A stretch of 59,701 nt of DNA, from the IMG/VR virus record IMGVR_UViG_3300028592_000011, positions 1 to 59,701 of that record; one strand, written 5' to 3'. The notes beneath the pieces were generated by a model. It saw nothing but the letters and a program-made list of their open reading frames with translations. It ran no database searches and was not told the origin of the DNA. Below, in pieces: positions 2,429 through 46,897 of the stretch. The stretch is from a virus. Its lineage: Duplodnaviria > Caudoviricetes. The number at the start of each line of letters is the position of its first letter. Position 1 is the first letter of the stretch. The translations under genes and the position numbers were made by a program.

Positions 2429-3028
2429 ATGCTCAAGCGAGCGTACAGCTTGTTCGAGATCAAAGCTGCTGACGACGAAAAGCGCGAGCTGACTGGCATT
2501 GCGACGACACCGTCCGTGGACAGCTATGGCGACATCGTCGAGCCGAAAGGCGCGGAGTTCACACTGCCGATTCCGTTCCTGTGGCAGCACAACTCAAGCC
2601 AGCCAATCGGGCATGTGACGAATGCGAAGGTCACGAAGGACGGCATTGAAGTCGTCGTGAAGCTGGTCAGCACGGATGAGCCGGGCAAGCTCAAGGAGCG
2701 CTTGGACGAGGCTTGGCAGAGCATCAAGCTGAAACTCGTTCGTGGTCTTTCGATTGGCTTCTCGCCCATCGAATACTCGCGAATCGAAGAAACATACGCG
2801 TATCGGTACATCAAGTGGGCGTGGCGCGAATTGAGCGCGGTCACGATACCCGCAAACGAAGACGCGCAAATCATCACCGTAAAATCGATCAAGTCAATCG
2901 ACCGTCAGCTGCTGGCCGCGTCAGGCCGTGAGCAGCGTGGCGGCGTCGCCTTGATCAAATCTCACCCGGCGTCTCGGGAAACCACCGTCCGCAAACGCGG
3001 ACCCGTGCAAATCATCCCGAGGAAATAA
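2429..3028 (+). CDS. HK97-family prohead protease
   Basis: LWQH, GLSIGF and ELSAVTIPAN motifs. Confidence 0.93.
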   Translation: MLKRAYSLFEIKAADDEKRELTGIATTPSVDSYGDIVEPKGAEFTLPIPFLWQHNSSQPIGHVTNAKVTKDGIEVVVKLVSTDEPGKLKERLDEAWQSIKLKLVRGLSIGFSPIEYSRIEETYAYRYIKWAWRELSAVTIPANEDAQIITVKSIKSIDRQLLAASGREQRGGVALIKSHPASRETTVRKRGPVQIIPRK

Positions 3029-3030
3029 CC

Positions 3031-4449
3031 GTGAAGAAGACTCTCCAAGACCAGATCAAGGATCTGGAAAACACCCGTGCGGCGAAGGCGGCGCGCCTGG
3101 GCGAAATCACTCAGAAATCCATCGACGAAGAGCGTTCGATGGATGAGGAAGAGGCAACCGAGTTCGACGACCTGAGCGCCGATGTCGAGCAGGTCGACAA
3201 GGACCTCGTCCGCCTGCGCAAGCTGGAGACCTTGCAGGTGAAGTCGGCCGCTCGCGTCACTGTCGACGCTGGCGTGGATCCGGCAGCTGCTTCGAAACAG
3301 CGTGGCACCCCGCACATCGTGCCGCTGGATAAGAAACGCGACAAGGGCCTGGACTTCGCCCGATATGTTGGCTGCTTGGTGGCCGGCAAGGGCAGCATCT
3401 CGGACTCGCTTCAGTTCGCGAAAGGTCGTTTCAAAGACGACGCGATGCTGCACAAGGCGTTGGACCTGCGTAGTCGCATGAGTGCCGAGCAGATCGTGAA
3501 GACTGCTGTCGACATCGGCACGACCACCGACTCGGACTTCGCTTCGCCGTTGGTTTACTACGCCAACATGGTGAACGACTTCATCGACTTCCTGCGTCCT
3601 CAGACAATTGTCGGCCGCATTCCTGGTTTGCGTCAGGTCCCATTCGACATCCGCATGGCTCGACAGACTGCAGGCTCGACTGCGCAGTGGGTGGGTGAGG
3701 GCGCGCCGAAGCCGCTCAGCCGCCAATCGTTCGATGCCGTGACCTTGGGTCACACCAAGCTCGCAGTGATCACCGTGATCACGGAAGAGTTGGCGAGGTT
3801 CTCCAGCCCGTCTGCGGAGACTCTGATCCGTAATGACTTGGCTGCGGCCGTGATTGAGGCATCGGACTCCGACTTCGTGGATCCGGATAACGCCGGCTCT
3901 GCGAACGTGAAGCCGGCATCGATCATCAACGGTGTCTCGGCTGTCGGCAGCGGCGGTACGTCGGAAGCCGATGTTCGCAGCAACGTGAACACGATCATGT
4001 CGGAGTGGATCACCAACAACAAAGGCGTTGTCGGTGGAGTGTGGATCATGCCGACGGTCGTGGCGATGCGCCTGTCGACGATGGTCAATTCGCTGGGTCA
4101 GCCGTCGTTCCCGACCATCAGGGCGGATGGCGGTACGTTCTACGGCCTACCGGTGGTGACCTCGCAGTCGAACGGCCTGCTGAACGGCTCTGCCAACGGC
4201 AAGGTCGTGATTCTGGCGAACGCGCCGGAGATCCTGCTGGCGGATGACGGTCAGGTGTCGATCGACGTGAGTCGCGAGGCCTCTGTGCAGCTCGAAGACA
4301 CGCCGACCAATCCGGTGGTGGCCGCGACGGTTCTGGTCAGCCTCTGGCAGCAGAACCTGCTCGGCATCAAGGCAGAGCGTTACATCAACTGGACCAAGGC
4401 ACGCAGCACCTCCGCTTCGTGGCTGAACTCGGTCAACTGGGGCGAGTAA
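3031..4449 (+). CDS. Major capsid protein (HK97 fold, N-terminal delta domain)
   Basis: Coiled-coil N-terminus, WVGEG..KP motif, C-terminal WQQNLLGIKAER. Confidence 0.93.
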   Translation: MKKTLQDQIKDLENTRAAKAARLGEITQKSIDEERSMDEEEATEFDDLSADVEQVDKDLVRLRKLETLQVKSAARVTVDAGVDPAAASKQRGTPHIVPLDKKRDKGLDFARYVGCLVAGKGSISDSLQFAKGRFKDDAMLHKALDLRSRMSAEQIVKTAVDIGTTTDSDFASPLVYYANMVNDFIDFLRPQTIVGRIPGLRQVPFDIRMARQTAGSTAQWVGEGAPKPLSRQSFDAVTLGHTKLAVITVITEELARFSSPSAETLIRNDLAAAVIEASDSDFVDPDNAGSANVKPASIINGVSAVGSGGTSEADVRSNVNTIMSEWITNNKGVVGGVWIMPTVVAMRLSTMVNSLGQPSFPTIRADGGTFYGLPVVTSQSNGLLNGSANGKVVILANAPEILLADDGQVSIDVSREASVQLEDTPTNPVVAATVLVSLWQQNLLGIKAERYINWTKARSTSASWLNSVNWGE

Positions 4450-29633: not shown

Positions 29634-30716
29634 TCACTTTTTAACATTGATTTTCACCCACTCACCGCGGCCATCAACGTAGGTCGCAGTGGACTTCGGG
29701 TCCTTGTGACTGAGCAAGTCTTGAGGGTCCACATCGCCCTGCTCCTTGTGCAGTCGGGCCGCCAATGACCGAATCTCGTGGAAGGTTGGCGGCGCCTTGT
29801 CAGCCCAGTCGATGCCCAGCTTCGCGAGCTCGGCGGAGAATACCCGAGTGATCATGTCCACGTGCAATGGCTTGCCGATCGTGGCGCCCTTGACTCGCTG
29901 GGTCTGGTGTACGAGGTAGATACTCACGATGCCAGTCTTGCGGCACTGGCTGACGACATCCTCGAGACTCATGCCAAAGACGTTCAGGCGTAGATGCATC
30001 GGCAGGAAGAAGCGTGCGCCTGTTTTGGTTCGCTCGCACCACCAGCCACCATCGCGGAAGTCTGTGAATTTCGCATTCCGAACGCTATCCCGGTCTTTGC
30101 CAGCCACAAGCGCGAGGGCGATGGCATTGCGTAGCCATACGATCTCGGTGGTTTTGTAGAGCCTCATAAGCACGTCCAGCGTGAGCCTGGAGCGCTTCAC
30201 CTTGACCTTGACCTCATCCAGCACCCGCGCCGGGTTGTCCTTGCGCCAGCCCTTGGCGATCATCCTGTCGAAGCAGTCGACCAAGAATGACCGGAATGCC
30301 TGAGCAGTGCGGGCTTTGCCTTCCGAGGTGATCTGGTCAATCACCTTGGCACAGTCCTGCGTGCTGATGCGCGAGGCGGCCAGATCAGCCTCGAAGCACC
30401 GACGTAGGCGGTTCAGCTGGCTCTTGCGGGTGCGTCGCGTATTCGGCCTGGAGTCGCGCTCCTCCAGGATCTTCTCGAAGATGTCGCACCACTCGCCCCA
30501 AGTGTTAGCTGCTCCGGTGATGCGCTCGAGCAGGCTAGGGCGCTTCGATGCGAGGTACACCTCTGCGGCGAGAACTTCCTGGATGGCCTTCGTCCGATCG
30601 CGGCCGAGCCCATGCTCGACGCCAGTCTCGGGGTTCGTCCACGAGTAGTAGCCATCGCGCACTCGCATACCAGGCCGAAGGGAACGATTGATCGCTTTAC
30701 GCTGCCTTGGAGCCAT
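29634..30716 (-). CDS. int: Lambda-type tyrosine integrase
   Basis: Arm-binding N-domain (GYY.W..P.TG...GLGRDR..AI), KTG, FHEIRSL, LLSHK, Tyr in TATYVDGRG. Confidence 0.93.
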   Translation of the reverse strand: MAPRQRKAINRSLRPGMRVRDGYYSWTNPETGVEHGLGRDRTKAIQEVLAAEVYLASKRPSLLERITGAANTWGEWCDIFEKILEERDSRPNTRRTRKSQLNRLRRCFEADLAASRISTQDCAKVIDQITSEGKARTAQAFRSFLVDCFDRMIAKGWRKDNPARVLDEVKVKVKRSRLTLDVLMRLYKTTEIVWLRNAIALALVAGKDRDSVRNAKFTDFRDGGWWCERTKTGARFFLPMHLRLNVFGMSLEDVVSQCRKTGIVSIYLVHQTQRVKGATIGKPLHVDMITRVFSAELAKLGIDWADKAPPTFHEIRSLAARLHKEQGDVDPQDLLSHKDPKSTATYVDGRGEWVKINVKK

Positions 30717-30906
30717 AGAAACCAGCTGCCTTCGATGGGTCGCGACCGATGAAGACCGCGCTCGGATCAACATAGTACGGCTTCCCGACGCGCTCAGGAG
30801 CTGGGAAAATCCACCCGTCGCGGGCCCAGCGCTGCAGCGTCTTGATGTTGGGCACCGGATCGAACCGAGCAGCTGCCCATGCCTGCAATGTGATCTTCTT
30901 GCTCAT
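30697..30906 (-). CDS. xis: Excisionase (lambda Xis-like)
   Basis: ITL..W......P...TL.RW...G.I.P.P...G..Y; overlaps int start. Confidence 0.88.
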   Translation of the reverse strand: MSKKITLQAWAAARFDPVPNIKTLQRWARDGWIFPAPERVGKPYYVDPSAVFIGRDPSKAAGFYGSKAA

Positions 30907-41392: not shown

Positions 41393-42133
41393 CTATGCGA
41401 TGAGCGCCTGCTGGGACATTTGACGCTCCCAGGTTGGCGCGCTGCTGTGAGCTTCGATCCGGCTTGCGATGACGATCGCGCGTTGAGCTGCCGTCGGCGG
41501 CGGATACATGCCGAAGCGTTTTACGCTGCCGCCGTTTACCGCGGCGTTGGTGGAGTCGCCAGAGGAAAGCGGCAGGCGCGTGAATATCTGCATGTCGAGC
41601 ATGCGCAGCCCGTGGAGCTTGCACCGAGGGCGCCCGTGCTTGTCACAGATCACGTCCATGGCTTGACCCATACGAGCCCACCATGCTGGAGTGCCTGGCG
41701 TCGCCCATTGCCCGGACGAACCGAGCGCAACGATCTCGAAGTGGCTGACGAGCCATTCCAGATATTCCAAGCTTTCGTGCATATGCCAGACCGGCACGCC
41801 CTTGATGCGATGGCCCCAGCGCAGCCAGTCGCGCACCCACCGGTAGTTCTGTTCCTCGGTGCCGTCGATAATGTCCGGGATGATTGCCCAATCGAAACAG
41901 GGGTGGCGGTAGAACGTGAGCAGCCATTCGACGTAGCCATCGTAGTCAACCTCACCTTGGCCTTTCTGCCAGATCGGGTACGACGAACAGTCAGTGATGA
42001 TCGATCGGGCCACTTCCAGTGCCACAGGCAGATCATCAGGCCGGGCATACGGGATCAGCACATCACGGCCTTGGATAAAGCGCGCGGGTGCGTCCCTTGG
42101 TCCGCCTATAGGTGTGCCGTGGTAGCACTTCAC
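41393..42133 (-). CDS. TGT-fold / DpdA-like transglycosylase
   Basis: TDCSSY (DxG-like), IPDII, VPVWH, ALGSS, LHGL, SGDSTN in TGT barrel order. Confidence 0.65.
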   Translation of the reverse strand: MKCYHGTPIGGPRDAPARFIQGRDVLIPYARPDDLPVALEVARSIITDCSSYPIWQKGQGEVDYDGYVEWLLTFYRHPCFDWAIIPDIIDGTEEQNYRWVRDWLRWGHRIKGVPVWHMHESLEYLEWLVSHFEIVALGSSGQWATPGTPAWWARMGQAMDVICDKHGRPRCKLHGLRMLDMQIFTRLPLSSGDSTNAAVNGGSVKRFGMYPPPTAAQRAIVIASRIEAHSSAPTWERQMSQQALIA

Positions 42134-43146: not shown

Positions 43147-43508
43147 GCGGCACCCGTTGCTTTGACGATGGCAGCGCGGGCCTCTTCGAGCATGGGGTGC
43201 GTGACCGTTACGAGCGCCGTATCTTTGAGTGGCTTTGCGTCGTCCCACATCTTCTGGGCGGTGAACACCAAGTTCCGCAACGCCTCCAGCAGATCGGGCG
43301 CGGCGGCGATCAGGCGGGCGTTCGCTTCGGCTTCCAGTTGGTGACAGCCGTGCTCGCCGCGCTGGATTTCTCGCACGGTGTTGAAGTGACACTCGCAGAT
43401 CGACTTCGCGGTGTGCGGATCGTGCGATGTCCAGACGGCAGTGTCTGCGTCGTTCTCGGTGCAGAAGTCGTTGACGACCCAGGGGCCGGGAGTGTGACGA
43501 GCGCTCAT
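43143..43508 (-). CDS. Conserved phage protein (HTPGPW family)
   Basis: HTPGPW ... ANARLIAAAPDLLEAL. Confidence 0.75.
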   Translation of the reverse strand: MSARHTPGPWVVNDFCTENDADTAVWTSHDPHTAKSICECHFNTVREIQRGEHGCHQLEAEANARLIAAAPDLLEALRNLVFTAQKMWDDAKPLKDTALVTVTHPMLEEARAAIVKATGAA

Positions 43509-43738
43509 GACCGCACCATCCAATCTCGCCCCTCGTACTTCATCGGGTCGCGCGAGTTACGCGGATCGCCTGCCAACAGATCGCGCATGAGCTGCGAGGG
43601 GTAGCGCAGCGTGATCAGCGTCAGCTTGGCGCCGGCGAAGATTCCAAACTTCTGCCGCAGCGAGCGGCGGCCGTCATAGACGGGGCGCGCGGTGATGCGC
43701 TCGTGCATGAGCGGCTGTATGGGGAGGTTGGGGATCAC
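43505..43738 (-). CDS. Hypothetical protein
   Basis: Coupled on both sides. Confidence 0.5.
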   Translation of the reverse strand: MIPNLPIQPLMHERITARPVYDGRRSLRQKFGIFAGAKLTLITLRYPSQLMRDLLAGDPRNSRDPMKYEGRDWMVRS

Positions 43739-44175
43739 GGCTGGACCTCGGTGTGCTCAGCGACGAAGCGCTCAATCCAGTCGGCGGCTTCATTCGCCGT
43801 CTTGGCCTCATCAACCAGGAACGGTCCCGTAAGTCCTCGTTCGCGTGCATGGCGGGCGGCGACGTGGCATCCGAAGAACTGGTTGGCTTCGTCCTCGGAA
43901 GAGAATTCGAAGTGATCGAGCACCACCTGATCGTCGTGGGAAACACATTCTCCGTCGCGCAGTTCCGGGCCGGATTCGGTCAGCAGGAATGCAGTTTGCA
44001 GATCCGTGCGATACGCGTAGTGCCCGAAGGCGCACATCGGGGTGTCGCAGTGGCCATAGCTGTACATCGCGAACTTGTCCGGGTTCGGCGATTCCCGCAG
44101 CGCCTTCGCGACATTGAGCAATCGTTCTGCGTTCACTTGGTTTATCTCCCTCGTCCTAGGCCGGCCGATATTCAT
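43735..44175 (-). CDS. Hypothetical protein downstream of tnpB
   Basis: ATG overlaps tnpB stop (ATGA); alternative GTG with GGGAGA RBS; C.T..CA.GH motif. Confidence 0.65.
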   Translation of the reverse strand: MNIGRPRTREINQVNAERLLNVAKALRESPNPDKFAMYSYGHCDTPMCAFGHYAYRTDLQTAFLLTESGPELRDGECVSHDDQVVLDHFEFSSEDEANQFFGCHVAARHARERGLTGPFLVDEAKTANEAADWIERFVAEHTEVQP

Positions 44176-45281
44176 GCCGCCGCCATCGCCAGCGATGACG
44201 AAGACTCGTTCCCGCGCATGGAGGCTCGACACCTGAGCCCGACAGTCAGAATGTTTCTCGCGGCGTTGATGTCGCGATCATGCTTGGCTCCACACTCCGA
44301 GCATTCCCACTGCCTTACAACGAGACCTGTCCGGCCTGCGGGACCCGTGAGGGCTCCGCAGCCGCTGCAGGCTCGCGTTGTGAATCTCTCGTTGACGATC
44401 TCAACCGTTCTGCCGGCGTACTCGCCCTTGTATCGCAGCTGGTCGCGCAGCAGCCCCCACCCAGCATCGAGCACGGACTTCGCCATCCGTGTCTTAGCCA
44501 ATCGAGTGCTACTCACGTCGCCGATGAATATCTGGTCGTACTGGCGCACGAGCAGAGTCGAAAACTTGTGCATGGAGTCGCGGCGCTGATTTACGGCGCG
44601 GCGATGCAACCGCTTAGCCTGACGCCTATGGCCGCGGCGTTGTGCCTGAGCGATCTTGATTTCCAGTTGACGGTAGTGGCGCCCCTCAAGGCGGTCACCG
44701 TCACTGGTCACGGCTGTATCCTTGCAGCCCAGATCAATCCCCACTGCCTCGCGCTCTGGCGCTGTCTGCTCGATCTGTACTTCCACAGGGATGCACAGCC
44801 ACCACGTACCGCAGGCGTCTTGTGCGAAACAGCCATCGCGAAACCGCACACCATCCAGTCGCTCGCGCTCGAACACGCGGAATGACTTCCCACAGAAACG
44901 GATTCCAGCGCCTTTGCGCTTGATGGTGACGGCCTTGAACGGCACCCAGCCGAGACTACGACGCGCGCCACGACTCACGCGCCAGCGAAGACGTGGGCGC
45001 TTCGCGATCCGCCGCTTTGCGGCGTACTCGCAGTTGATGCGCTGGATTGTGTCGGCCCCGATGTGTTCGAAGTACTCAGACGCACCGGCGCTCAAATTGC
45101 ACAGATCGAAACCGCTCAGCCACTTGGCGTTTGCACGACGGTTGCGATCCGCTGCATCGATGCTGGTGGCATTGGCCCAATTCCAAACATCGTTGCATTC
45201 GATGGCGGCCGCATTCAGCCACGCATACGCATTAGTCTGCACCTTGAGTCGCAGAGTGCGCGTGAGCGAGGCGGTGTGCAT
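44172..45281 (-). CDS. tnpB: TnpB-family RNA-guided nuclease, rearranged RuvC-II, no transposase
   Basis: VGIDLG, IFIGD, VNERFTTRACSGCG, WECSECG..HDRDINAARNI. Confidence 0.92.
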   Translation of the reverse strand: MHTASLTRTLRLKVQTNAYAWLNAAAIECNDVWNWANATSIDAADRNRRANAKWLSGFDLCNLSAGASEYFEHIGADTIQRINCEYAAKRRIAKRPRLRWRVSRGARRSLGWVPFKAVTIKRKGAGIRFCGKSFRVFERERLDGVRFRDGCFAQDACGTWWLCIPVEVQIEQTAPEREAVGIDLGCKDTAVTSDGDRLEGRHYRQLEIKIAQAQRRGHRRQAKRLHRRAVNQRRDSMHKFSTLLVRQYDQIFIGDVSSTRLAKTRMAKSVLDAGWGLLRDQLRYKGEYAGRTVEIVNERFTTRACSGCGALTGPAGRTGLVVRQWECSECGAKHDRDINAARNILTVGLRCRASMRGNESSSSLAMAAA

Positions 45282-45324
45282 TCAAACTCTCCCAGTTGGC
45301 CTAGGCCGGGTGGCTTCGGTGTGG

Positions 45325-45672
45325 TTACTTCGAAAGCTTCTCGATCTCGGCCTGCAGCACAGGCTTCGCGTTCACGACCAAGTTGTAGTAGTGAGTTGCG
45401 AGCTGGAACGTGGAGCCGATCGTTGAGGGAAGCTCGGCGTCGAATGCGTCGAGCATCGCGGCAAGCTTGGTGCGCAAGCCGTGGTTGCTTCTTTGATCGC
45501 TGCGGCCGGCGTAGTAGGCGATTGCGGCAGGAACCGACATCGCAAGGAAGATCGTCAGCGGCGTGGTCCAGCCAGTGATCTCGCCGCACGAGTCCGTGTC
45601 GCCGACCAGGCCGACCGAGATCAGGGTCGTTGAGACGATGATGCTGGCAGTGGCAAACAGAGCTTTGTTCAT
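45325..45672 (-). CDS. Membrane protein, first gene of PL operon
   Basis: Two hydrophobic segments; directly downstream of PL. Confidence 0.65.
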   Translation of the reverse strand: MNKALFATASIIVSTTLISVGLVGDTDSCGEITGWTTPLTIFLAMSVPAAIAYYAGRSDQRSNHGLRTKLAAMLDAFDAELPSTIGSTFQLATHYYNLVVNAKPVLQAEIEKLSK

Positions 45673-45711
45673 CTTGCTTCCCCGGTGCGGTTTTGGCGTC
45701 GGCGTGGAAGC

Positions 45712-45755
45712 ATCATCTTGCACGCACGTAAGGATGTCAATACATCAACGCAAGA
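45712..45755 (-). promoter_or_regulatory. PL promoter with two operators
   Basis: TTGACA-17-GATGAT; operators TCTTGCGTTGATGTA and CCTTACGTGCGTGCA. Confidence 0.75.
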
Positions 45756-45799
45756 TTTTACGCGCTCGTGCGCAGGCAGGGATTCGGGTGCACGGGCAC

Positions 45800-45824
45800 A
45801 AAAAACCCGGCTCTAGGCCGGGTT
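45800..45824 (-). terminator. Terminator of repressor transcript
   Basis: AACCCGGC-ctaga-GCCGGGTT followed by T run on minus strand. Confidence 0.7.
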
Positions 45825-45871
45825 CTCTGGGTTGCTTTTGGAGGGTGTGCGCTAGGGGCAGGGCTGCGTGG

Positions 45872-46090
45872 TTAGCGATCCTTGTCCGCACCAGCGTCCC
45901 GACGCTGGCCGTAATCGACCACAGCGTGGCAATCACACATTAGATCGAGCCAGTAGCCCCGATCCTTGGTGATGCTTTTTTCTGCCTCCGCGACGGAGAT
46001 CATCCGGGCAAGGTCAAGCATCACCCGATATTTTGAGTCGTCGGTATGGGTCGTGACATTCCCGGTTACTCTTCTTGATTCATCGGCCAT
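45872..46090 (-). CDS. Small protein co-oriented downstream of repressor (rex position)
   Basis: GGGAGA RBS; between cI and its terminator. Confidence 0.6.
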   Translation of the reverse strand: MADESRRVTGNVTTHTDDSKYRVMLDLARMISVAEAEKSITKDRGYWLDLMCDCHAVVDYGQRRDAGADKDR

Positions 46091-46140
46091 GGATTCTCCC
46101 TTTCTGATTGTTGTGGGTGATCCCTAGGGTGGTTCGCCCT

Positions 46141-46590
46141 TTAGCGTTTTGCTCGCTCAATCGGCGTGACGTTTCCAGCCGTGCGCTTGGCTTCCTCCAG
46201 CTGTCGCTTGTGCTCGAACGCACGCTCGATCTGCTCGTTGATGGCGTAGAAGTCCTCTTTCGGCAGGCTCTCCAGTCGCTGCGCCAGGAGGATGGTGGAA
46301 AGCTTGTAGTCGGTCAGGGCCTTCTCTGCATCGGGCGTCATGGGCTCACCTCTCAGGAGGGCTTTGGGGAGCCCGAACGTGCGGTGAGTCGCCTCGATGG
46401 TATCCGGGCCCACCTCCTGGAGCTCGCGAAAGATGCGAGACAGGGTGGCCTCCGAGATCGGGTGGCCTTTGGCTTTGTAGTGCCGAGCAACGGCACCAAG
46501 GTTCAGTCGGCCGTCGTTTCGCCACAGCTCCTTGTACGGCTGTGCCGCGGCCTCGATGAGTTCCTTGAAGGTTAGTTGTCGCTTTGCCAT
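46141..46590 (-). CDS. CI-like repressor (HTH, no S24 peptidase domain)
   Basis: LGAVARH......ISEATLSRIF HTH; divergent from cro-like gene. Confidence 0.7.
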   Translation of the reverse strand: MAKRQLTFKELIEAAAQPYKELWRNDGRLNLGAVARHYKAKGHPISEATLSRIFRELQEVGPDTIEATHRTFGLPKALLRGEPMTPDAEKALTDYKLSTILLAQRLESLPKEDFYAINEQIERAFEHKRQLEEAKRTAGNVTPIERAKR

Positions 46591-46630: not shown

Positions 46631-46674
46631 CCTTGCGGCGATGTATTGAAGTCCTTGCGGACATGTAATATGTT
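46631..46674 (+). promoter_or_regulatory. PR promoter with two operators
   Basis: TTGAAG-17-TATGTT; CCTTGCGGCGATGTA and CCTTGCGGACATGTA, 22 bp apart. Confidence 0.72.
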
Positions 46675-46681
46675 GGCGCCT

Positions 46682-46897
46682 ATGTCCACAGACCTCGCCT
46701 CCAAGATTCAGGAATTGATCGGCGCTGGCGTCAATGAGAGCCAGATCGTCACCACCCTCAACGCCGAAGGCGTGGAGGTGACCTTGCCCACGATCAACCG
46801 CATCAAGAACGGACTCATCAAGCGGACTAGTTTCGACATTGGTAGTGCTCTGGTGCGCCTCCACAAGAAGCGCGTTCGTTCTGGTCGTGCTGCCTAA
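46682..46897 (+). CDS. Cro-like HTH protein
   Basis: PTINRIKNG......F..G..L..L. Confidence 0.75.
   Translation: MSTDLASKIQELIGAGVNESQIVTTLNAEGVEVTLPTINRIKNGLIKRTSFDIGSALVRLHKKRVRSGRAA

Follow-up and report, generated by a model that had tools for sequence, protein, structure and literature searches.

The largest group of TnpB nucleases with a rearranged RuvC domain, RIIr-5, has Gly in place of the RuvC-II Glu, and another Glu compensates for it (Altae-Tran et al. 2023, PMC10691335). In Fanzors and in the proteins called TnpB2, the alternative Glu is found ~45 residues away, according to Jiang et al. (2023, PMC10530073), who also describe a TnpB2 member, TvTnpB, as cleaving DNA with NTGAC as its target-adjacent motif (TAM). 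Insertion sequences (ISs) of the IS1341 group, which are TnpB-only members of IS200/IS605, are elements of ~1.3 kb composed of a left end, tnpB, and a right end; they are multi-copy in bacteria and also occur in phages. In this study, we analyzed a tnpB gene of the IMG/VR virus record IMGVR_UViG_3300028592_000011 (a complete record of 59,701 bp, hereafter referred to as the window) and compared it with these systems. Its product resembles RIIr-5 and TnpB2 in that Gly replaces the RuvC-II Glu and a Glu is present 44 residues downstream, before the Zn finger, and in having a DRDxN-type RuvC-III motif, a C4 Zn finger, and a predicted omegaRNA at the 3' end of the gene. In contrast to these systems, the window copy lacks a left end and has a shortened scaffold. 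The difference from IS1341-group copies in phages is likewise at the left side: Ralstonia phage Heva, with a 48%-identical gene named ISPa83, has 446 nt of room upstream, and Salmonella phage LPSTLL has 154 nt upstream of tnpB, both of which are normal room for a left end, whereas only 6 element-specific nt precede the gene in the window.

We propose that the locus is probably a single intact IS1341-type copy with the RuvC-II rearrangement, which was immobilized in a variable slot of a lambda-like temperate phage and is a selfish passenger rather than a tamed function. The cassette keeps the nuclease gene, the right-end terminus of its clade, and a predicted cis-encoded omegaRNA scaffold, while the left end has been lost; without a left end, it would therefore be neither excised nor transposed by a Y1 transposase. 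The first-pass annotation of this DNA, made from the sequence alone, had proposed instead a domesticated TnpB that the phage co-opted as an early RNA-guided nuclease or regulator. The features of the cassette and its borders are the following.

44172..45281, minus strand: tnpB open reading frame (ORF), 369 amino acids, with RuvC-I D183 (GIDLG), G254 (IFIGD), E298, Zn-finger C305/C308/C327/C330, and RuvC-III HDRD (D335/D337)
45282..45287, minus strand: GTTTGA, the sole TnpB-specific DNA before the ATG
45288..45324, minus strand: phage intergenic stretch of 37 nt, with repeat copy 1 (45300–45309), the Shine-Dalgarno (SD) sequence GGGAGA (45288–45293), and a TAM-like CCAC (45310–45313)
44165..44314, minus strand: omegaRNA-like scaffold confined to the 3'-terminal part of the ORF and the 7 nt behind it, with a model match at 44165–44244 and a covarying long-range stem to ~44314
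44222..44240, minus strand: hairpin P1 (GGGCUC / GAGCCU), 4 pairs of which have compensatory changes in 6–10 of 17 sequences
44183..44200, minus strand: 7-bp hairpin with a CUGG loop, the stub of a long covarying stem
44165..44171, minus strand: right-end terminus ATATCGG, in register with the clade consensus (G/A)CACCGG
44145..44164, minus strand: putative guide flank CCGGCCTAGGACGAGGGAGA, 20 nt, with repeat copy 2 (44155–44164) and the SD sequence of the next gene (44145–44150), placed by analogy with TnpB systems

The Pfam domains OrfB_IS605 (PF01385, 2.1e-13) and Cas12f1-like_TNB (PF07282, 3.1e-22) were both detected above cut-off in the protein. Of the 8000 candidates scored in a database search, 7702 proteins had E ≤ 0.001. 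Apart from the protein itself, P0002 and P0003 were the closest in this set (80 and 79% identical, respectively); most relatives have 385–392 residues, compared with 369 in the window. We aligned the protein with 16 relatives, and D183, G254, E298, C305, C308, C327, C330, D335, and D337 were invariant in all 17 sequences. E298, in the sequence NERFTTRAC, is located 7 residues ahead of C305 and 44 residues past G254. The profile of this alignment matches the solved ISDra2 TnpB (8bf8/8exa) at 5.8e-33. When it is aligned with 8bf8_A/8exa, G254 stands opposite the Glu of 'GTEHL', which we take to be the catalytic RuvC-II residue of ISDra2 TnpB, and E298 stands opposite a Pro. The acidic triad (D183, the relocated E298, and D335/D337) and the C4 Zn finger are complete. 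A full-length TnpB with GIDLG, DRDINA, a Gly in IFIGD, and a Glu in NERFTTRAC, as previously annotated, is thus borne out by the 17-sequence alignment and the 8bf8 profile alignment. As judged from these sequences, the relocated Glu is a family-wide and already published trait that is not peculiar to the window copy, and the protein would be assigned by motif alone to RIIr-5/TnpB2, which have Gly or Pro at the RuvC-II Glu position and a conserved alternative Glu about 45 residues downstream (here Gly and 44 residues). Among 140 highly conserved family columns, it departs from 2, a number equal to the family median, and the gene appears to be intact with no sign of decay. It is present in a single copy in the 59.7-kb record, and neither a Y1 nor a serine tnpA (Y1_Tnp, resolvase) was found in that record, in agreement with the annotation.

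The closest relatives of this TnpB are full-length IS-type copies, and their clade appears to be multi-copy and mobile in bacteria: one metagenome-assembled genome (MAG) has four clade copies that are 94–96% identical over 1261 nt, and genome G001 has three that are 95–99% identical over about 1320 nt. A TnpB match was present in 315 phage records, and no syntenic tnpB ortholog was found in IMG/VR or among reference phages, both of which are incomplete collections. The proteins encoded on either side of tnpB had no relatives in IMG/VR; in tblastn against reference phages, the upstream protein gave two weak matches and the downstream protein none. When 5.5 kb around tnpB was compared with reference phages by blastn, 22 records matched in short patches only, none of them covering at least 80%. 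The 80 loci reached through a 246-amino acid gene located 2 kb away encode neither tnpB nor either adjacent gene.

The right end was determined by comparing relatives with their flanks, which we collected from genomes and metagenomes as well as viral contigs. An alignment of 17 such 3' regions shows conservation through the stop codon plus 7 nt (...GGCATGA(G/A)CACCGG), followed by divergence, the right end of the element in relatives thus being 6–7 nt past the stop codon. Related copies in different contexts lose similarity at this terminus, as observed with L164/L165 (86% over 1302 nt), L083/L085 (79% over 1248 nt), and the three ~1320-nt copies of G001. The previous annotation had suggested that aligning the 3' flanks of homologs would reveal the boundary between scaffold and guide, and this boundary would lie at 44165/44164; a diverged contig of the metagenome run X2 matches the window only as far as 44164, which is a weak hint for the same border. 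Two claims about packing need to be revised in part. The tnpB stop codon does overlap an ATG, in the literal ATGA at 44172–44175. This ATGA, however, is part of the right end, where it is conserved in 14 of 17 aligned rows, and the next gene most likely starts with GTG at 44136 behind an SD sequence GGGAGA, given that two contigs of other runs, which match 44070–44135, end at 44135. The statement that there was no room for IS ends holds for the left end, which is absent; the right end is present. As a separate observation, the ATGA at the right end opens a downstream ORF in two viral contigs (L083 7155–8111 and L087 3044–3481), in a metagenome contig (L167 1293–1610), and at 44175 of the window. 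Such ORFs could be due to chance in GC-rich DNA or to translational coupling of the gene behind the element.

A conserved fold is predicted in the last ~130–200 nt of the ORF. Among the 17 sequences, it comprises 32 predicted pairs, 10 of which are compensatory, and the consensus structure of the 14 full-length relatives has 35 pairs, 20 with compensatory changes. We built a covariance model (R1) from these 14 relatives, leaving out the window, and it matched the window once, end to end, at 44165–44244 of the minus strand (70.7 bits, E 2e-14); the next-best match in the window scored only 11.4 bits. R1 also matched 21 of the 68 loci searched, all of which belong to the close clade (at least 59% identity) and 7 of which were outside the training set. 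The match in the window has an internal deletion of 48 positions, where the CUGG tetraloop stands in for the inner ~60 nt of the scaffold present in relatives. What remains is P1, the invariant GCGGGAACGAG, the base of the long stem, and the closing helix, in which the 3' terminus ATATCGG takes part through G-U pairs. These features suggest that the scaffold has been naturally shortened by internal deletion to about 150 nt. The short C-terminal tail of the protein is the shadow of this deletion: among 133 relatives, 93 have tails of 43–46 residues and 15 have short ones. Short tails require 12 independent changes on the tree, where the window clusters with P0002 and P0003, both of full length, and the shortening therefore appears to be recent and recurrent. 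Two hairpins had been noted in the last ~70 nt of the gene; both are there (44222–44240 and 44183–44200) and form parts of this scaffold. The prediction of a very compact, truncated, or trans-supplied guide is right as to the compactness of the scaffold, but the guide would be neither supplied in trans nor lost, because the scaffold is in register up to its end at 44165. The 20 nt that follow, CCGGCCTAGGACGAGGGAGA, would serve as the guide by analogy with TnpB systems; they are adjacent phage DNA, as in any IS copy. Rfam revealed no family over 43800–45700 except for two chance-level matches (E ~4), and single-sequence folding of the tnpB 3' region was uninformative (z -0.95).

The left side differs from that of complete relatives, which possess a conserved left end of about 60–250 nt with hairpins. 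Searching with two clade left-end profiles (nhmmer) gave nothing beside tnpB; the best matches (E 1.7 and 0.18) were both elsewhere in the window. The stop codon of the upstream ORF is at 45325–45327, 43 nt ahead of tnpB, as had been annotated. We aligned contigs of the public metagenome runs X1, X2, X6, and X9 to 43300–46100, with ~35% of run X1 read. A 2373-nt X2 contig spans 45299–46100 with 4 differences and 1 gap (about 99.5% identity), and from 45288 on, the window is also matched by contigs of X1, X2, and X6, in which other DNA precedes this position. Read on the minus strand, the alternative joint is ...CCGGCCTAGGCCAACTGGGAGA, followed by 5 nt and then a different ORF (MRYLHISA...). 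Since these contigs carry 45288–45324 ahead of a different ORF, this stretch, including the SD sequence GGGAGA, appears to be phage DNA, and tnpB would have been fused 6 nt past a phage SD sequence that serves another gene in related contigs. Likewise, because the contigs of the three runs join 45288–45324 to other DNA instead of tnpB, the slot is suggested to be variable. The tnpB body (44240–45273) had no cover in X2, X6, and X9 save one short conserved patch, and this was not counted as absence. The genes bordering the 37-nt stretch, on one side or on both, differ in the contigs of the three runs, and the stretch resembles a mosaic boundary for the exchange of gene cassettes.

Other arrangements of the clade were encountered. 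Locus L326 (G002:C20:44500-49000, reverse strand about 2680–3120) resembles a miniature inverted-repeat transposable element derived from the same IS clade. It lacks the nuclease gene: its left end and ~25 initial codons run directly into the final ~200 nt, which comprise the scaffold and the right end. In the viral contig L087, a tnpB of 59% identity has a scaffold that is shorter still, an upstream gap of 3 nt, and a stop codon overlapping the next ATG (ATGA); compact, end-less forms of tnpB may recur in phages.

An exact 10-nt direct repeat, CCTAGGCCGG, flanks tnpB at 44155–44164 and 45300–45309, which are its only two exact copies in the window. A repeat of at least 10 nt in 50-nt flanks occurred in 0.43% of 20,000 random placements (empirical P about 0.004). 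On the coding strand, both copies have the layout CCGGCCTAGG-N4/6-GGGAGA-N5/8-start codon, and a third copy, CCGGCCTAGA (9 of 10 positions), contributes the loop and arm to a hairpin terminator (45800–45824). We infer that the two repeats derive from an intergenic unit of the phage that is repeated ahead of consecutive cassette genes. Target duplication was ranked low as their origin, because copy 1 is located in DNA shared with tnpB-less contigs and because IS200/IS605 elements are not known to make a target duplication. In ten complete relatives, the left flank terminates in AC (CGAC, CCAC, CAAC, TAAC, and TGAC), which makes an NNAC TAM plausible; the motif resembles NTGAC of TvTnpB. In the window, the unit upstream of tnpB is CCAC+CCGGCCTAGG followed by CCAACT, and the self junction reads CCAC+CCGGCCTAGGCCAACT. 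This unit shares only its first 10 nt with the guide flank, and therefore should escape cutting. No second full match to the 20-nt flank was found in the window, the only partial one being the 10 nt at 45300–45309, and an exact scan of IMG/VR with the 22-nt upstream unit gave no match.

TnpB is known to generate omegaRNA by processing the mRNA that encodes it. Upon induction or infection, transcription of the operon would supply both TnpB and an omegaRNA with adjacent phage sequence (CCGGCCTAGGACGAGG...) as the guide. In related phages, cassette-less alleles with NNAC+CCGGCCTAGGACGAGG would then be cut by the ribonucleoprotein (RNP), and recombinational repair would copy the cassette in, as a TnpA-independent, 'non-restorative' homing. 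A precedent is provided by a 2026 review (PMC13565253), which describes the spread of IS605 in a plasmid population as aided by TnpB without TnpA through 'non-restorative homing'.

Several points weigh against a passenger that spreads in this manner. A TnpB-less allele with the TAM and the full 16–20-nt target was sought in relatives and none was recovered, and the homing target is hypothetical for this reason; the search for empty-site alleles in related phages that had been suggested earlier thus yielded no full cassette-less allele, only the X1, X2, and X6 contigs that join 45288 to other DNA. An exact scan of IMG/VR with the 20-nt guide flank found no match elsewhere. The putative TAM is taken from ten left flanks, and expression of the cassette and its RNA is predicted. 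A Y1 transposase (PF01797) was present in none of five close-clade MAGs (G001–G005; behind L002, L029, L003, L037, and L004), which may be incomplete, although one of them, G001, has three 95–99% identical copies of the element. The 10-nt repeat (P about 0.004) leaves some room for an origin resembling target duplication, and the parallel packing of L087 could mean that compact forms are under selection in phages.

A more specific possibility, which we put forward tentatively, is that a TnpB without its left transposon end is maintained in temperate phages as a free-standing homing endonuclease guided by RNA. Expressed from the PL promoter with an omegaRNA of ~150 nt, it would cut CCAC+CCGGCCTAGGACGAGG units ahead of a cassette gene in co-infecting or resident relatives and be copied in without a transposase; its own unit, with the 10-nt seed only, would escape and might be bound for autoregulation. 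Like the phage homing endonucleases Seg and Mob of T4, the nuclease gene is wedged between phage genes in a variable slot. An allele without the gene would be cut and insertion would break the site and protect the carrier, as in homing endonucleases and in 'non-restorative' TnpB homing as outlined in the review (PMC13565253). Recognition would differ from that of homing endonucleases in being RNA-guided, as predicted for the window element from its sequence. If active, the locus would be a natural case in which TnpB moves between phages through homing only, with neither transposon ends nor a transposase, and would connect phage homing endonuclease biology with obligate mobile element-guided activity (OMEGA) systems. 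A naturally trimmed omegaRNA, with a 48-position deletion and the covarying core kept, would be a further gain, potentially useful for miniature genome editors.

Among the alternatives to a selfish passenger, the cassette could be an inert relic that was brought in by illegitimate recombination and is heading for decay with no activity of consequence. The absence of a left end and of tnpA, the loss of 48 model positions from the scaffold, and the variable slot fit this explanation, as do the flips of GC-skew sign at both borders, which suggest unameliorated foreign DNA. However, we consider it rather unlikely: nothing interrupts the ORF, its departures from conserved columns do not exceed the family median, the scaffold has lost its 48 positions cleanly, with the closing helix, P1, and the basal stem spared, and short forms recur independently (15 of 133 rows, with 12 changes on the tree).

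Domestication, the explanation favored by the first-pass annotation, appears improbable. The phage would have co-opted TnpB as an early nuclease or regulator; in one variant, the RNP would bind CCAC+CCGGCCTAGG (10-nt seed), 19 nt upstream of its own ATG, and tune the PL operon, and in another it would attack host or competitor DNA. An intact ORF that lacks a left end and is tightly packed with a phage SD sequence behind a repressor-controlled promoter would be expected of such a gene, and the TAM-like CCAC with 10-nt identity to the guide flank upstream of tnpB, the parallel compact case of L087, and the immobilized TnpBs predicted to be active in PMC10691335 are also in line with it. In contrast, a different gene occupies the same joint in other contigs, searches of IMG/VR and of reference phages turned up no syntenic ortholog, the closest relatives are IS copies of full length from a mobile clade in which the rearranged site is family-wide, and the guide would simply be the adjacent DNA with no second target in the window. 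The exapted TnpBs named TldR, as portrayed in 10.1101/2023.11.30.569447, share with the window copy the lack of transposon ends; they have a fixed genomic context, sometimes in prophages, and are nuclease-dead regulators with conserved promoter guides, whereas the window TnpB has intact catalytic residues and no conserved context. The co-option proposed earlier is therefore not upheld. It over-read the locus, because the lack of tnpA, the tight packing, and the odd active site, domestication-like as they appear, are ordinary or trivially explained in this clade.

An ordinary recent transposition of an element at 44165–45309, inserted after the TAM CCAC and before CCGGCCTAGGACGAGG with a 28-nt left end starting CCGGCCTAGG, is very improbable even though the right terminus is exact, CCAC fits the NNAC left flanks of relatives, and the repeat would give element and target the same beginning, since the first 22 of these 28 nt (45288–45309) precede a different gene in contigs of three runs and hence would be phage DNA, the left ends of relatives are about 60–250 nt with hairpins and none is detectable here, and the record has one copy only.

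The selfish cassette that we favor is set in the following phage context.

446–2152: large terminase
29634–30773: lambda-type integrase
45740–45712, minus strand: PL-like promoter TTGACA-17-GATGAT (sigma-70-like)
45730–45754: 25-nt operator-like motif overlapping the PL-like promoter
45325..45672, minus strand: first ORF of the operon, 115 amino acids, predicted membrane protein (MNKALF) with no family match
43735..44136, minus strand: downstream gene, 133 amino acids from GTG 44136, with no family match
46141–46590, minus strand: cI-like ORF, followed by a 72-amino acid ORF
46682–46897, plus strand: cro-like ORF (phrog_6831)
45800–45824, minus strand: hairpin and T-run terminator, AACCCGGC-CTAGA-GCCGGGTT+T-run, read directly from the sequence and not listed by the terminator scan

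Given the large terminase and the lambda-type integrase, the record is that of a temperate tailed phage of the lambda-like type. The only other copy of the 25-nt motif is located at 46632–46656, in inverse orientation, in the divergent region between the cI-like and cro-like genes. The PL-like and PR-like promoters would thus each have one copy of the same operator-like motif; the OL and OR operators of lambda form a comparable pair. As tnpB is the second ORF behind what seems to be a repressor-controlled early-left promoter, the label of second gene of a PL operon given to it earlier is reasonable and is supported by the motif shared with the cI/cro intergenic region.

All genes at 43900–45500 are on the minus strand, and the sign of the GC skew is negative over tnpB and positive in both neighbors; GC content (~0.60–0.62) does not differ between tnpB and the neighbors. 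The flip at both borders of tnpB may be a weak hint of foreign origin. Long open frames run antisense to tnpB at 44280–44885 and 44722–45426 (plus strand), and in L085 (6025–7194, minus strand) such a frame of 389 amino acids extends across the whole tnpB. Peptides from a reverse frame of this kind are reported in a 2026 cyanophage preprint (10.64898/2026.02.14.705889). GC-rich codon bias alone may account for the frames found here. The 246-amino acid gene used above to reach related loci (41393–42133, minus strand) resembles queuine tRNA-ribosyltransferase genes (phrog_887, 7.5e-52) and possibly encodes a DpdA-type DNA-modification enzyme; it is widespread, with 184 relatives in IMG/VR, the closest of which (L242) is 78% identical.

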